49,762 nt of DNA, from positions 1 to 49,762 of the forward strand of contig JBILSS010000001.1 of assembly GCA_044371965.1 (NCBI GenBank). Reading direction: 5' to 3'. This DNA is from Vampirovibrionales bacterium. GTDB lineage: Bacteria; Cyanobacteriota; Vampirovibrionia; Vampirovibrionales; JAJTHC01. Numbering within the stretch: the first letter of the stretch is position 1; each line of letters starts with the position of its first letter. The notes beneath the pieces were generated by a model that saw nothing but the letters and a program-made list of their open reading frames with translations, ran no database searches and was not told the DNA's origin. Shown here in pieces: positions 1,815 to 7,288 of this stretch. A program made the translations under genes and the position numbers.

Positions 1815-3238
1815 ACGAAGTGTCTGAAATTATTACCACTTGGACGCTCAAAGATGCCTTGGCAAGCCTTTTCGTCAAAGCGTTAAGCTTGGCGATTCGC
1901 TTAAGTGGCAAGGGTTCCGCCACCAGCTTACCTGGTAAGTTGGCTTTAAGGTGGCATCCGCAATTGTTAAACGCCTTAGGCAAAAAGTTGCCGAAGATTC
2001 GTGTGATGCTAACAGGCACCAACGGCAAAACCACGACCGCCACCTTTTTACGAGACATCTTTGAAGCGAATCATGACGCCTGCTTGCTCAATGAAAAAGG
2101 GGCGAACTTGGTCTATGGCATCACCACAAGCTTGGCTCAAGCGGTTGGGTGGAACGGTGCTTATCACGCCCAAGTTGCCGTGCTAGAAACGGATGAAGCC
2201 ACCGTCGGCAAAGTCGCCCCAGCGGTTATGCCGTCTGATTTAGTGGTGATGAACCTCTTTCGAGACCAGCTGGATCGCTATGGGGAACTTTCGACCACAG
2301 CGGCTTTTATCGAAGAGGGTATTCCCTTTACAACAGGCACGCTATTCCTCAATGCGGACGATCCCATGCTCGTGGGTATGGGACGAAATGCCGAAAAACA
2401 GGGGCTTGGCGTCTTTTATTTTGGCTTAAATGTGAGTGGGCAAGCGTCGGAAAAAACGGCAACAGGCTTGGCGAAAACGGTGCCGCATCCGCAGGAAGTG
2501 GCGAACTGCCCTGAATGTGGGCAAGCGGTTTTGTATCGTAGCCGTAGTTTTGCTCACTTGGGCGACTGGTTTTGTGAAGGTTGTGGATTGAAGCGTCCTG
2601 ATTTAGATGCCAGTATCACGCCGTTAAACGTAGAAGCCGACGGCTGGCATTTAAGGTTGGATCACCACGTCCTCGGGCAGGGGATTATTCTCAAAAGCCC
2701 TTTAATGGGACTTTATAACGCTTACAATGTTTTAGCAGGGGCTTCTGTGGCAGGGCATTATCACACGCCAGTCACCGCCATTCAAACGGCGTTGGACACG
2801 CATCATGCCATGTTCGGCAGGGCTGAAAAGCGAGTGATTGAAGGCAAATCTGTTCAAATTATGCTGATTAAAAACCCTGCAGGTGCCTCTGAAGTGATTA
2901 AGACCGTGTGTGATGACAAAAAGGCACACGTTTTAATTGCTTTAAACGATTCTTATGCCGACGGCGAAGATGTCTCGTGGATTTGGGATGCCGATTTCGA
3001 GCAATTATTGACCACGCATCCGAATGCGGAACGCTACACGGTGAGCGGCAAACGTGCCTATGACTTGGCGAACCGTCTGCAACACGCTACGCTGGACATG
3101 CATTGGCATCCGCAGGTGAAAGCGTCTTTAGAAAACGCCTTGCATCTGGCGTTAGCAGGGGTTGAAGAGGGGGAAACGCTCTATATTTTACCCACCTACA
3201 CGGCTTTGCTGGAACTAGAAAGTTTACGAACTATATAG
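1811..3238 (+). CDS. murT: Mur-ligase-family protein, lipid II isoglutaminyl synthase subunit MurT
   Basis: 475-aa ORF colinear with MurT. It has the LPGKLALR N-terminal segment, P-loop MLTGTNGKTTT, FRDQLDRYGE, Cys4 ribbon CPECG...CEGCG, NPAGASEV and the C-terminal DGEDVSWIWDADFE (DUF1727-type) region. The start is uncertain (TTG 1811 is the first candidate). Confidence 0.8.
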   Translation: MNEVSEIITTWTLKDALASLFVKALSLAIRLSGKGSATSLPGKLALRWHPQLLNALGKKLPKIRVMLTGTNGKTTTATFLRDIFEANHDACLLNEKGANLVYGITTSLAQAVGWNGAYHAQVAVLETDEATVGKVAPAVMPSDLVVMNLFRDQLDRYGELSTTAAFIEEGIPFTTGTLFLNADDPMLVGMGRNAEKQGLGVFYFGLNVSGQASEKTATGLAKTVPHPQEVANCPECGQAVLYRSRSFAHLGDWFCEGCGLKRPDLDASITPLNVEADGWHLRLDHHVLGQGIILKSPLMGLYNAYNVLAGASVAGHYHTPVTAIQTALDTHHAMFGRAEKRVIEGKSVQIMLIKNPAGASEVIKTVCDDKKAHVLIALNDSYADGEDVSWIWDADFEQLLTTHPNAERYTVSGKRAYDLANRLQHATLDMHWHPQVKASLENALHLALAGVEEGETLYILPTYTALLELESLRTI

Positions 3239-3680
3239 GGCTATAAAGATTTCGTCGTTCGAGAGGCATCTTGAGAAAGTCCGTCAAAATCCCACGAGCG
3301 GCTTCTTCATCGATTAATCCCTTGTGACGACTGGGAGCTTTACCCGACTCACGAATATGCTGTTCCGCAATTTTAGAGGTCAACCGTTCATCCAACAGAT
3401 AAATCGGCAATTCAGGACGTTTCTCTAGCAAGGCATCGGCGAAATCGTAGACGGCGTCTGCCATAAAGCCTTCGGAGCCATCCATGTTGCGGGGGAGTCC
3501 CATGACCAGAGCCACGGCTTTTTTGTCGTCGATGAGGGCTAGCACTTGGTTGAGGGTTTCAACAAGGGGGATTTTGGTTCTTGCGAGTGTGGGGAGTCCG
3601 AAGCAAAACGTTTCGCTGTCGTCGCAATAGGCGACGCCAATGCGTTTTTTCCCGTAATCCATGCCGATGTATGTACTCAT
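3231..3680 (-). CDS. ruvX: Holliday-junction-resolvase-like nuclease RuvX/YqgF
   Basis: 149-aa ORF. MSTYIGMDYGKKRIGVA...GLPRNMDGSEG...LLDERLTS is the YqgF/RuvX signature. Its 3' end overlaps the murT 3' end by 8 bp (convergent). Confidence 0.9.
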   Translation of the reverse strand: MSTYIGMDYGKKRIGVAYCDDSETFCFGLPTLARTKIPLVETLNQVLALIDDKKAVALVMGLPRNMDGSEGFMADAVYDFADALLEKRPELPIYLLDERLTSKIAEQHIRESGKAPSRHKGLIDEEAARGILTDFLKMPLERRNLYSPI

Positions 3681-4240
3681 TGCGGGGTGCCTTGGGGTAA
3701 AACCGCTAATCCCTGTTCAATAGCCATTTCAACACTCAAGACTTTAATCGAATGGCGAGGAATATTCCATATTTCAGACAAGGGGAGAGTTTTGAACTGT
3801 TTTCGAATCTCTCGGGTAAGGATCTCTATTTGTTCGTTATGAGCCGTTTTACTTTCCTTTGTATTATTGCAGATCACAATAAACTCAAAATTAATCAGAT
3901 GTGAACTATTTAATTCAGAAATAAGAGTTGGAAACCTTTCCATGTATTCGTGTCGTTTAAAAGCATAAGCTAATAGAAGAGAAAGAGAGTCTGTAAATTT
4001 TTTAAGTAAACTGTCTATTTCGTCTGCCACATCTGCTCTTGGTACACTCCGTTTGGCTTCGATAAAACTTAGTTTCTTCTTCTCAGGAGTACCATGATGT
4101 AGAATAAAATCAACCGCCGAAACACCTTTACTATTTAAATGCTTCTTGTATAAGATCGCTTTGTCTAATTCTATGCAATCCATTTCTTCAAATGAACCAA
4201 AACAAATTTCAGACTCTTTATCCTCGAAGAACTTTACCAT
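3677..4240 (-). CDS. Hypothetical protein with a PD-(D/E)xK-like nuclease motif; downstream partner of the ATPase gene
   Basis: 187-aa AT-rich ORF, 4 nt downstream of the ATPase gene. GVSAVDFILHH, 11 residues, then LSFIEAKRS gives a D...ExK arrangement preceded by an acidic helix FEEMDCIELDKA. No named family recognised. Its stop TGA overlaps the ruvX ATG (ATGA at 3677-3680). Confidence 0.6.
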   Translation of the reverse strand: MVKFFEDKESEICFGSFEEMDCIELDKAILYKKHLNSKGVSAVDFILHHGTPEKKKLSFIEAKRSVPRADVADEIDSLLKKFTDSLSLLLAYAFKRHEYMERFPTLISELNSSHLINFEFIVICNNTKESKTAHNEQIEILTREIRKQFKTLPLSEIWNIPRHSIKVLSVEMAIEQGLAVLPQGTPQ

Positions 4241-4244
4241 AATA

Positions 4245-5276
4245 TCAAAGTCTCATTTCGTCTTTATACAAAGTGATAGACTCCTCAATAATTGAGTTAT
4301 CAGGCATATCTTCTTTTAGATTTTCACTATGCCATTGAGACCCCTCTGCATTTTTTTCATACAGGAGAACAGGTATATCCATTTGTTCTCGCAATGCGAT
4401 AATGTGCAACTTTTTAATGACAAAATAAGAATGGGATGCCATGAAAATTTGAAAGCCTGCATCTACTAACAAGGCAAGTTCTTCTAAAAAAGTAGAGATA
4501 TAATGAGGATGTAAGGCTGTTTCAGGTTCATCAATAAAAATAACAGAACCTTTAACGAGGTACTTACTACCAAGTAAGGTATCTAAAATGCCTAACTTTT
4601 TGATGCCTTCCGCTGTAACACTCATGGGAAACTTATATTTACCTTTCGTGTAAATCCACTCTCCTTCTTTTGTCGCTTCAATCTTCCCTTCGAGCATTGT
4701 TTTTAACTGCTCACGAAAGGTTTTGACTTCATTCTGAAAGTTACCTCTAACGGGGACGCCTCCTAATGCTACCGCTAAATCATAATAGGTATCATCAAAG
4801 CCAAAGATCTTGTCTTTATCACGACTTTGTAAAATGATTTTCTGTGTAGAAAGCACTTCTTTGGGTGGAAGAAAAATAGAGTCTATATTTTTTCGTTCGA
4901 CTTTATTCTCAATCAAAGTGACTTGCTTTGTCGCATCTTGTCCAAACGTAAAATGAATATTTTTTTTTGATATAATAGCTTGAAAATCAGCTGGTTTTTT
5001 GTCAGGTTGTTTGGTAACTAAATCACCAATCGTTTTTGCTTGAAACGTCCAATGTAGTTTTTCACCTAAGTGAGCAGGAAACGGCTTCTTTATATCGTCC
5101 CCTCGCTCGTGTGTTTCAATGGCTTTTATGGTGGCATACAAAGCCTTGAGCAAAAAAGTTTTTCCCGAACCATTTTCGCCCACAATGAGGTTGATGCCTC
5201 CTAAGTTGTCCCATTTTAAATCCTTGAGCGGTCCAAAGTTTTTAATATGAATCGACTCATAAATAGGTTCAGACAT
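4245..5276 (-). CDS. ABC/SMC-like (AAA_21-type) P-loop ATPase
   Basis: 343-aa AT-rich ORF. N-terminal IHIKNFGPLKDL...INLIVGENGSGKTFLLKAL (Walker A), signature-like SVTAEGIKKLGIL, Walker B VIFIDEPETALHP, H-loop MASHSYF. No nuclease or TOPRIM domain is fused. Confidence 0.85.
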   Translation of the reverse strand: MSEPIYESIHIKNFGPLKDLKWDNLGGINLIVGENGSGKTFLLKALYATIKAIETHERGDDIKKPFPAHLGEKLHWTFQAKTIGDLVTKQPDKKPADFQAIISKKNIHFTFGQDATKQVTLIENKVERKNIDSIFLPPKEVLSTQKIILQSRDKDKIFGFDDTYYDLAVALGGVPVRGNFQNEVKTFREQLKTMLEGKIEATKEGEWIYTKGKYKFPMSVTAEGIKKLGILDTLLGSKYLVKGSVIFIDEPETALHPHYISTFLEELALLVDAGFQIFMASHSYFVIKKLHIIALREQMDIPVLLYEKNAEGSQWHSENLKEDMPDNSIIEESITLYKDEMRL

Positions 5277-5317
5277 GACAAAATCCTTTATTTCAGTAGC
5301 ATGAAGTAGATAAACTT

Positions 5318-5326
5318 ATTTTAGCA
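5318..5326 (-). promoter_or_regulatory. Candidate extended -10 promoter (TGc TAAAAT) for the ATPase/nuclease/ruvX unit
   Basis: Minus strand reads ...ctgTGcTAAAATaag..., about 40 nt upstream of the ATPase ATG, with AAGGA as SD. No good -35. Motif match only. Confidence 0.35.
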
Positions 5327-5350
5327 CAGCTTCTATTAATCAATACAAAT

Positions 5351-7288
5351 CTACTCCCACTCCACGGTGGCAGGAGGTTTGCTGGTGATGTCGTAAAACA
5401 CATGACCCACCCCAGCGAGTCCCTGTAAATACGAGCCTAAACCCGACAAAAAGCCTTCAGGCAATTCCTGCCCCACTAACGCTGGTCGAGCCGTCATAAA
5501 GTCACTGGTCACCACCGCCCTAACCGCCAACGAACGACTGCCGACGCCGTCGACCGCCACAGGCAACATCACGGCGAGCAACTGACTAATAGCGTTGAAA
5601 TCGGCGTGAGCCATGGTGTAATCCGTTACATGAGCATCCCAGTTTTGCAATTGAGCAATGGCGTCAGGCGTGAGCGTCGTAGGGGTAATCGTCTTAATCG
5701 AGCTTGCCAACACACGAGACGGAGCGATGTTGAGAGCGATGCGGTTAATCAAGGGCAGACGATTGGTGAGTTCCCGAGCCGCATGACGCACGGCTTTAAA
5801 GCCGTGGATGCTGTCAAAATCGTCCGCTTCAATCGCTGCGACATAACTATAAGTGCGTCCGTCGCCTTGCACACCAACAGTGCGAACAGGCAATAAAACA
5901 GCTTTTAAATCAAACTCACTCGCCACACGTTGAAGATCCGCATTCAGCGTATCGTAAGCGTCTAAGCCATAAGCGGTATTGGCACAGAGCATCCGTACGC
6001 CCAAACCTGGACCTGGAAAAGGCTGGCGAATGACCAAGGCTTCAGGCAAGCCGAGCAAACGCCCCACTTGGCGGACTTCATCCTTATGCAAGTCACGGTT
6101 AGGCTCGACGATGAGTCCCTTGTCACGCTGGGCTTGAATGAGAGGCACATCATTATGATGCGTCTTGATTTTTTGAGCCGTTTTAGAAACATCCTTATTC
6201 CCACTTTCAATCAAATCAGGGCGTAGCGTCCCTTGAGCGAGCAAGACATCATCCGCACTAACGCCAGCTTCTTCAAGCGTGGCTTTCATCTCGGCATCAA
6301 TCAAGCGGAAGAAAGCATCGCCAATGAGACGGCGTTTTTCTTCTGGATCCGTCGCTTCTTTCAACGGCCCAATTGTACGACCTGCATCATCAAGCGTGGT
6401 GAAATCGAGGAAAAAGTCTTGAGCATCGAGACGTTTAAGATGCGTTAAGCCAATGGCTTGAAGGGCATCGCAAACGAGATCGCTTTCATCTTGACGCATC
6501 AAGCCCGTGTTGATATGCACGGCATAGACTTGTTTGGCAGGCAAGGCTTTAATCAACGCCGCCGCCACCACAGAAGAATCCACGCCCCCACTCACCAGCA
6601 CAAAAACAGGGCGATCCTGCACCTGTTGCTTGAGTTCATCGAGCATGGTTTCGAGTCGATCCGCCAATTTGAAGGATCCTGAAAGGTGACAAATATCGAA
6701 TAAAAAGCGTTCGAGCATGGCGGTGCCTTCGGTGCTAAGTTCCACTTCAGGGTGAAACTGTACGCCGTAAAATGGTTTGCTTTGGTGAGCAATGCCTGCA
6801 TGCACATTCACCGTTTTGCCTGCTTCTTCAGACACAGATTCCGCAATAGCGACAAAGCCTTCGCCTAGTTGTGTGACGCTATCGCCATGACTCATCAACA
6901 CATGCTGCGTACTATTTAAGCCTTTGAACAGAGGGCTTTCCGTATCCACCGAGATTTCGGTTTCGCCGTATTCCTTGCGAGAACAGCTTTCTACCGTGCC
7001 TCCAAAGTGTTGGGTCATCAATTGCATGCCGTAGCAAATGCCTAAAACAGGAACGCCCAAATCGAAAATAGCCCCATCACACTGCGGAGACCCTGCATCA
7101 TACACCGAGTGAGGTCCTCCGCTCAAGATAATCCCTTTGATACCAGCGTCTTGCAAGACAGATGCGTGAACATCAATCGGAAAAATCAACGATTCCACGT
7201 TCATTTGACGCAAACGGCGATCAATCACCTTGGTGTATTGAGCTCCACAGTCTAAAATCGCAATAGGTTCAGGGAAGGGGTTTGACAT
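5351..7288 (-). CDS. guaA: GMP synthase (glutamine-hydrolysing), long form
   Basis: 645-aa ORF. GATase domain (ILDCGAQYTKVIDRR...GICYGMQLM...FHPE), PP-loop VLVSGGVDSSV, and C-terminus ...YDITSKPPATVEWE. It has an extended C-terminal (dimerisation-type) region about 120 aa longer than the usual ~520-aa bacterial enzyme. Confidence 0.9.
   Translation of the reverse strand: MSNPFPEPIAILDCGAQYTKVIDRRLRQMNVESLIFPIDVHASVLQDAGIKGIILSGGPHSVYDAGSPQCDGAIFDLGVPVLGICYGMQLMTQHFGGTVESCSRKEYGETEISVDTESPLFKGLNSTQHVLMSHGDSVTQLGEGFVAIAESVSEEAGKTVNVHAGIAHQSKPFYGVQFHPEVELSTEGTAMLERFLFDICHLSGSFKLADRLETMLDELKQQVQDRPVFVLVSGGVDSSVVAAALIKALPAKQVYAVHINTGLMRQDESDLVCDALQAIGLTHLKRLDAQDFFLDFTTLDDAGRTIGPLKEATDPEEKRRLIGDAFFRLIDAEMKATLEEAGVSADDVLLAQGTLRPDLIESGNKDVSKTAQKIKTHHNDVPLIQAQRDKGLIVEPNRDLHKDEVRQVGRLLGLPEALVIRQPFPGPGLGVRMLCANTAYGLDAYDTLNADLQRVASEFDLKAVLLPVRTVGVQGDGRTYSYVAAIEADDFDSIHGFKAVRHAARELTNRLPLINRIALNIAPSRVLASSIKTITPTTLTPDAIAQLQNWDAHVTDYTMAHADFNAISQLLAVMLPVAVDGVGSRSLAVRAVVTSDFMTARPALVGQELPEGFLSGLGSYLQGLAGVGHVFYDITSKPPATVEWE

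Follow-up and report, generated by a model that had tools for sequence, protein, structure and literature searches.

A predicted HEC-02-type ATPase and nuclease pair with mosaic alleles at a fixed guaA-ruvX site in Vampirovibrionales

Between two housekeeping genes of an uncultured freshwater bacterium of the order Vampirovibrionales lies a pair of small genes, here called A and B, predicted to form an anti-phage system of the HEC-02 type. The pair was analyzed within a stretch of 49,762 nucleotides (nt) from contig JBILSS010000001.1 (assembly GCA_044371965.1), referred to below as the window. Both open reading frames (ORFs) run in the same direction on the minus strand: A, at positions 4245-5276, encodes 343 amino acids (aa), and B, at 3677-4240, encodes 187 aa, with a spacer of only 4 nt (TATT) between them. 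The upstream neighbor on the same strand is guaA (5351-7288; Pfam GATase and GMP_synt_C) and the downstream neighbor, also on the minus strand, is ruvX (3231-3680; PF03652). The G+C fraction (GC) of the pair, 0.365 for A and 0.360 for B, compares with 0.509 for guaA, 0.500 for ruvX, and 0.501 for murT. A preliminary description of this DNA had reported two co-directional AT-rich genes, 4 nt apart, between guaA and ruvX, and the ORFs, Pfam matches, and base composition agree with it. Judged by homology, A and B are real genes rather than chance ORFs because A has more than 2800 homologues (E≤1e-10) and the profile of B matches 163 representative clusters (E≤1e-3).

The edges of this cassette are compact. 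The 74-nt intergenic region between guaA and A (5277-5350, minus strand) likely holds the promoter and 5′ leader of the cassette; a scan of this leader for consensus promoters gave no match above chance. At the cassette borders, searches for flanking direct repeats, tRNA genes, Rfam families, terminators, and above-chance promoters likewise returned none. At the other end, the stop codon of B and the start codon of ruvX overlap in the sequence ATGA (3677-3680, minus strand), an arrangement kept in related contigs; in one of them (L097), B and ruvX abut directly with no such overlap.

The product of A is, from its sequence, predicted to have an ABC-type ATPase core in which Walker A, the signature, Walker B, and the H-loop are all intact. 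All of the motifs quoted in the preliminary description, including the D...ExK arrangement of B, are present at verified coordinates. In A, read from the translation of the minus strand, these are Walker A GENGSGKT (5157-5180), the signature-like SVTAEGIKKL (4593-4622) some 180 aa further along the protein, Walker B VIFIDEPE (4521-4544) followed by the D-loop ALHP, and the H-loop ASHS (4428-4439). A multi-phylum alignment of 24 sequences shows Walker A, a TxEGxKK signature, Walker B, the D-loop, and the H-loop to be invariant, the individual residues being Gly-33, Asn-35, Gly-38, Lys-39, and Thr-40 in Walker A; Thr-221, Glu-223, Gly-224, Lys-226, and Lys-227 in the signature; Asp-249, Glu-250, Glu-252, Ala-254, Leu-255, His-256, and Pro-257 in Walker B and the D-loop; and Ala-280, His-282, and Ser-283 in the H-loop. 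Pfam places the protein only in generic P-loop and ABC families (AAA_21, 9e-20; AAA_15, 2e-16), and neither A nor B has a match in NCBIfam above the cut-offs of that resource. The PADLOC model for HEC-02A (PDLC04214) is matched by residues 7-342 along positions 3-334 of its 338 (E=2.4e-131), so that A (4245-5276) is annotated here as a stand-alone HEC-02A ATPase, the proposed sensor or regulator of the pair.

For B (3677-4240), annotated here as HEC-02B from its PADLOC match and its AlphaFold2 model, the proposed role is that of a small nuclease effector of PD-(D/E)xK type. Residues 8-179 match positions 6-169 of the 171 in the PADLOC HEC-02B model PDLC04221 (E=3.5e-28), and every one of 66 aligned relatives matches HEC-02B models. 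The putative catalytic residues are well conserved across these relatives. Asp-26 (4163-4165), the first conserved acidic residue, is acidic in 66 of 66 (Glu in 58, Asp in 8), as is position 44, the “D” of the PD motif in Asp-44-Phe-45 (4106-4111), where Glu occurs in 54 sequences, Asp in 12, and the adjoining Phe is kept in 62; in the ExK motif Glu-61-Ala-62-Lys-63 (4052-4060) the three residues are retained in 65, 63, and 64 sequences, respectively, and Lys-81 in 64. Thus, the conservation of the two acidic residues and of Glu and Lys in ExK is 97-100% despite sequence identities of 23-33%. An AlphaFold2 model built from an alignment of seven sequences had a mean predicted local distance difference test score (pLDDT) of 36; inclusion of 66 remote relatives raised this to 90.6, with a predicted template modeling (TM) score of 0.88. 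In that model, Asp-44 directly precedes a strand at residues 45-51 and Glu-61-x-Lys-63 ends a strand at 54-63.

Comparison of the B model with the Protein Data Bank (PDB) using Foldseek places FokI first (probability 0.87, E=3.6e-3, TM score ~0.30). Lower matches include Cap4, Hachiman HamA, BamHI, MUS81-EME1, BsmI, and the L-protein endonucleases of bunyaviruses and arenaviruses, all with PD-(D/E)xK folds; unrelated proteins such as EF-Tu are also among the matches, and a search of a viral fold library with the same model gave similarly weak matches only. The preliminary description had read a restriction-endonuclease fold from D...ExK; the model of B is confident, and its best, though weak, matches are nucleases of that fold. 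A nuclease fold for B is well supported by the residue pattern and moderately by the structure search. The D...ExK core of the B profile also matches residues 2333-2385 of a protein of 5137 aa (P0104; E=6e-5), which may represent a nuclease domain fused within a giant protein.

Because both proteins match PADLOC HEC-02 models over their full length, the pair is assigned on sequence grounds to the already catalogued HEC-02 anti-phage family. HEC-02, or Hma-embedded candidate 02, was discovered embedded in Hma systems and described as an ABC ATPase with a NERD-like PD-(D/E)xK protein, the latter superposed on a NERD model by Payne et al. (bioRxiv 10.1101/2024.01.29.577857). In Escherichia coli, HEC-02 conferred phage protection that required both genes and, like other active HEC systems, it lowered plaquing by orders of magnitude for at least two phages (bioRxiv 10.1101/2024.01.29.577857). 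This is the anti-phage pairing of a stand-alone ABC ATPase with a small PD-(D/E)xK-like partner that the preliminary description had put forward. Its further suggestion, a variant system with a different effector, stands only in part: the effector is indeed unlike TOPRIM, HNH, and RloB proteins, but the variant is not a new one, as PADLOC labels it HEC-02.

The tested representative of HEC-02 comes from Dickeya dianthicola NCPPB 3534 (WP_024108366.1 and WP_024108365.1; bioRxiv 10.1101/2024.01.29.577857, supplementary table). The ATPase of the window is 28% identical to that of Dickeya over 289 aa (E=8e-36), and a profile of the B family aligns with the small Dickeya protein at an hhalign probability of 81% (E=1.2e-5), placing D...ExK on D...EVK. 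The Dickeya proteins score best on two other HEC-02 models, PDLC04146 and PDLC04145, yet also match the models of the window pair, PDLC04214 and PDLC04221, at 4e-60 and 9e-6; the window pair can therefore be regarded as a homologous sister subfamily. The PADLOC labels of the two Dickeya-type models look swapped, as PDLC04146, named “HEC-02B,” is the ATPase model (8e-183 for the Dickeya ATPase) and PDLC04145, named “HEC-02A,” is the model for the small protein. The RefSeq product name given for the small Dickeya protein in the preprint table, “cysteinyl-tRNA synthetase,” likewise looks like a misannotation.

Relatives of A (E≤1e-10) are ~337 aa long and ~50% identical, and are found in Proteobacteria, Verrucomicrobia, Lentisphaerae, Cyanobacteria, Bacteroidota, Planctomycetota, and others, with 422 of ~185,000 species-representative genomes of GTDB encoding one. 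Where the pair has been annotated at all, the entries read “ATP-binding protein” and “hypothetical protein.” B evolves much faster than A. Word-indexed searches with B, as a single sequence or as a profile, recovered only six close relatives, and an exhaustive profile search was used instead; most of the clusters it found are of 160-180 aa. Linkage was consequently examined from the side of the ATPase, in 80 genome loci from many phyla recovered with the alignment of A. A B-family ORF lies downstream of A on the same strand in 79 of them, and the contig of the remaining one ends 5 bp past A, so that the association of the two genes envisaged in the preliminary description extends well beyond this lineage. 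The B-family ORF follows A directly in all but two loci. In Lautropia dentalis (L032, 9014-10522) something has been inserted between the genes and B stands 1.5 kb downstream; a metagenome-assembled genome (MAG) of Methylobacter (L046, 9238-9537) retains a fragment of B only.

In 70 of 74 loci the flanks exceed the cassette in GC, and the median difference of cassette from flanks is -7 points; low GC is thus a trait of the whole family. The genomic surroundings of the pair also bear on whether it might serve a housekeeping function. Within the Vampirovibrionales, the order guaA-A-B-ruvX is found in every related contig that spans the junction, and this fixed position, together with the overlap of B with the start of ruvX and the failure to find hallmarks of mobile elements at the borders, would suit a module for DNA repair or recombination acting with RuvX, in which an ABC ATPase like RecF, Rad50, or SbcC works with a partner nuclease. 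A does resemble the N termini of RecF and Rad50, but only weakly, the matches being limited to the P-loop region and lying far under curated cut-offs. Outside the Vampirovibrionales, moreover, ruvX falls within the fetched locus in just 1 of 77 cases (L086) and guaA in none of the 77. The most frequent families among nearest neighbors elsewhere (106 ORFs at 55 other loci) are the subunits of type I restriction systems (HsdR 7, HsdM 4, HsdS 2), followed by further AAA_21 ATPases and Fic proteins. Finally, in strains that share 91-97% identity in guaA and ruvX, A and B reach only 58% (29% for a third B allele), and so strong a divergence beside near-identical neighbors is incompatible with a conserved housekeeping role. 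Such a repair module is accordingly considered extremely unlikely. The narrower candidate of a ruvX repair operon was rejected, ruvX not being adjacent to the pair outside the Vampirovibrionales clade.

How the cassette varies at its fixed site can be followed in closely related contigs. The window is 99.9% identical to one Logan contig and 95-98% identical to others, including the NCBI MAG GCA_046315215.1. Look-ups with exact proteins and a metagenome scan with RuvX found no relative in which guaA and ruvX adjoin without the cassette; the scan yielded only two reasonably close contigs, one carrying the third allele and the other (RuvX 55% identical) too short to be informative. The preliminary description had taken the atypical composition and the placement between conserved genes as signs of horizontal acquisition by insertion. 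A recent, strain-specific insertion is not supported, because no empty site was found and low GC is a property of the family; what does hold is that modules of the cassette are exchanged between strains and species.

Three tracts with different histories can be distinguished, all on the minus strand. The first is a conserved leader block (~5180-5350) comprising the guaA-A intergenic region and the first ~50 codons of A, in which all alleles share 85-99% nt identity (95-99% over most of its length) and residues 1-53 of A are 96-100% identical in all contigs. In L018, from a different species representative, this block is more conserved than the 3′ end of guaA. The second tract, M2 (4440-5130), is the middle of A (~aa 50-280), with the inserts, signature, and Walker B. 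It occurs as two allelic types of ~44% protein identity to each other, one in the window, L003, L014, and L017 and the other in L002, L018, L011, and L097. L002 differs from the window by replacement of this middle only, within flanks of 98-99% identity: its nt identity there is 51-81%, with 95-99% on both sides, and its protein is 44% identical in the middle against 100% in the N- and C-terminal parts of A.

The third tract, M3 (3740-4430), joins the C-terminal tail of A (aa 286-343) to aa 1-167 of B and exists in at least three allelic types. The identities of tail and B to the window rise and fall together (97-100% with 98-100%, 61-63% with 57-60%, and 78% with 29%), and the two always travel as a unit in the contigs compared. 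The combinations of ATPase middle and B type observed are A1B1, A2B1, A1B2, A2B2, and A2B3, the third B type being that of L097. In L018, M3 is 95-99% identical to the window in nt, compared with 73-91% for guaA and ruvX (~87-90% as proteins); as both its leader and its tail-B tract are more similar than its housekeeping flanks, these tracts were therefore probably exchanged recently. Conversely, L011 and L097 have guaA 96-97% identical to the window, with A at 54-58% and B at 57 or 29%. Such a mosaic fits reassortment of alleles by homologous recombination at one fixed site on which diversifying or balancing selection acts, rather than simple vertical divergence; where phages drive the selection on a gene, modules that are extremely divergent or exchanged between near-identical flanks are to be expected.

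The end of the cassette behaves differently again. The last ~20 codons of B (3677-3740, ending LPQGTPQ) share the conservation of ruvX, even in alleles with a replacement of the remainder of B, except in the third allele of L097, which is without this tail. Together with the overlap of stop and start codons, the conserved tail suggests that expression of ruvX depends on read-through from the cassette.

The pair is very probably a chromosomal HEC-02-type two-gene anti-phage system in which A acts as sensor or regulator and B as nuclease effector. Under the mechanism proposed here, the variable middle of A, with its inserts between Walker A and the signature, would recognize a phage-derived cue, as its allelic variability suggests; Payne et al. 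(bioRxiv 10.1101/2024.01.29.577857) also put forward a sensing role for the ATPase. B may dock on the C-terminal tail of A and be held or activated through it, since the tail and B co-segregate, and binding or hydrolysis of ATP after sensing would then release or activate B. B itself would be a metal-dependent PD-(D/E)xK nuclease with a site formed by Asp-26, Asp-44, and Glu-61-x-Lys-63, as indicated by residue conservation and fold, that halts phage replication by cutting nucleic acid, probably at a cost to the infected cell. The sharing of roles between A and B, the dependence on ATP, the surface at which B docks, the target of the nuclease, and any abortive infection are all inferred.

Several observations weigh against this interpretation. 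By its best-matching models, the pair belongs to a sister subfamily of HEC-02 (PDLC04214/PDLC04221) and not to the tested one (PDLC04146/PDLC04145). The cassette is probably co-transcribed with ruvX, and its constant presence in related contigs and its housekeeping context are atypical of defense genes, which tend to be variably present. The co-variation of the A tail with B could reflect physical adjacency alone. The assignment of B as a nuclease also meets negative results: the Foldseek search against the PDB gave nothing at E<1e-3, with TM scores of ~0.3; the B profile matched no PDB sequence even at E≤10; and B has no family match in Pfam, including NERD (PF08378) and PDDEXK, although the NERD model and the PDDEXK/HamA models each match 1 of the 66 relatives at E values of 0.01-0.07 (0.073 for NERD).

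These weak fold matches (E≥3.6e-3), the missing Pfam nuclease match, and the fact that the literature searched yielded no biochemical data on an HEC-02B protein are also what would be expected if B were a non-catalytic adaptor or DNA-binding subunit, any defense then being carried out by the ATPase or by host factors recruited for it. That B is non-catalytic is very unlikely, given that the two acidic residues and ExK are near-invariant among such divergent relatives, that in the predicted structure they lie on adjacent β-strands (45-51 and 54-63) as in PD-(D/E)xK enzymes, and that nuclease folds are enriched among the top Foldseek matches.

A further explanation accepts B as a toxin but assigns the pair to its own maintenance: A would be a neutralizing ATPase in a selfish, addiction-like toxin-antitoxin module retained through post-segregational or operon-embedding effects. 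The Pfam description of AAA_21 (“AbiEii/type IV TA,” for toxin-antitoxin) and the resemblance of the architecture to PARIS, in which AriA restrains AriB (PMC11464382), are consistent with this, and losing the cassette could carry a cost because of its tight coupling to ruvX. In HEC-02, however, the phage protection requires both genes (bioRxiv 10.1101/2024.01.29.577857), and restraint of the toxin-antitoxin kind can go together with defense and does not compete with it as an explanation. Plasmids and phages, where addiction modules are usually common, seldom carry the family: 3 of 72,556 plasmid records match at E≤1e-40, and phages gave two weak matches. A purely selfish module thus appears quite unlikely, and an HEC-02-type defense pair remains the preferred explanation.

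A more specific proposal, held tentatively and somewhat short of an even chance, is that the guaA-ruvX site of this clade is a fixed immune locus whose polymorphism selection maintains, and at which an ATPase-middle (sensor) module and a tail-plus-B (docking and effector) module recombine freely within and between species. If so, the locus would map the boundaries of the functional modules of HEC-02, show that A binds B through its C-terminal tail, and add a bacterial defense gene to the cases of trans-species polymorphism. The gene ruvX is essential in many bacteria, and its stop/start overlap with B might be what prevents loss of the cassette. The natural chimeras hint at the boundary between the sensor module and the effector-docking module, giving a specific basis for domain swaps. 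No new system is described here; HEC-02 is extended to the Vampirovibrionales (Melainabacteria) and to a widespread subfamily. The sole observation that goes beyond the searchable literature is the modular shuffling of alleles at a fixed housekeeping site, which is useful for dissecting HEC-02 and unsurprising for a defense gene.

Other features of the window include a second AT-rich segment (756-1840, GC 0.34) with an ORF of the RhuM family on the plus strand (831-1814; PF13310, 8e-71; PADLOC candidate PDC-S05, 4.5e-100). This segment is a presence/absence polymorphism: L003 and L004 carry ~66 bp in place of its ~1.1 kb, with murT coming straight after the permease gene. Two cyanobacterial loci, L045 and L047, likewise have RhuM-like ORFs in the vicinity of their HEC-02 pair. 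The GuaA of the window has 645 aa, its PP-loop region and C-terminal dimerization domain being ~300 residues apart; a typical bacterial GuaA has ~520 aa.

Among other defense systems, PARIS is also a two-gene pairing of an ABC-ATPase sensor with a small nuclease effector; A matches AriA models at ~4e-21, and AriA is among its PDB sequence matches. The HEC-02A score of A is, however, ~110 orders of magnitude better than that for AriA, and B has no AriB, TOPRIM, or DUF4435 match in PADLOC or Pfam. AbiL, Septu, Gabija, retron-associated PtuA, and OLD share the AAA_15/AAA_21-type ABC ATPase core, and PtuA and the Eco8 OLD nuclease are also PDB sequence matches of A. Every other ABC-ATPase defense model in PADLOC that matches A (AbiLi, AriA, PD-T4-4, NsnB, PtuA, GajA) does so at 1e-21 or worse, with AbiLi at 1.6e-21, PtuA at ~1e-11, and GajA at ~1e-12. 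The partners or effectors of these systems differ from B, being RloB/TOPRIM-like proteins, HNH proteins, and UvrD-like helicases, and the inserts in their ATPases are larger or of another kind. No PADLOC model for a partner protein in any of these ATPase families matches B. Membership in PARIS, Septu, Gabija, or AbiL was rejected, the similarity of the ATPase being much weaker and a partner match absent.

Among nucleases, the best structural neighbors of B are the FokI cleavage domain, HamA, and the Cap4 nuclease domain, which likewise present acidic, acidic, and ExK residues on adjacent β-strands. B differs from NERD and other nucleases of the restriction-endonuclease fold in being a free-standing protein of 187 aa with an ATPase partner, with TM scores of ~0.3 and no significant sequence match to them. 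HEC-02 itself provides the nearest counterpart. The context differs from that of its discovery, as the window pair adjoins guaA and ruvX and no Hma or other defense operon, and B can be related to the small Dickeya protein only by comparison of profile with sequence. The architecture is nonetheless the same in both, an ABC ATPase of ~340 aa followed on the same strand by a protein of ~170-190 aa with a D/E...ExK arrangement.

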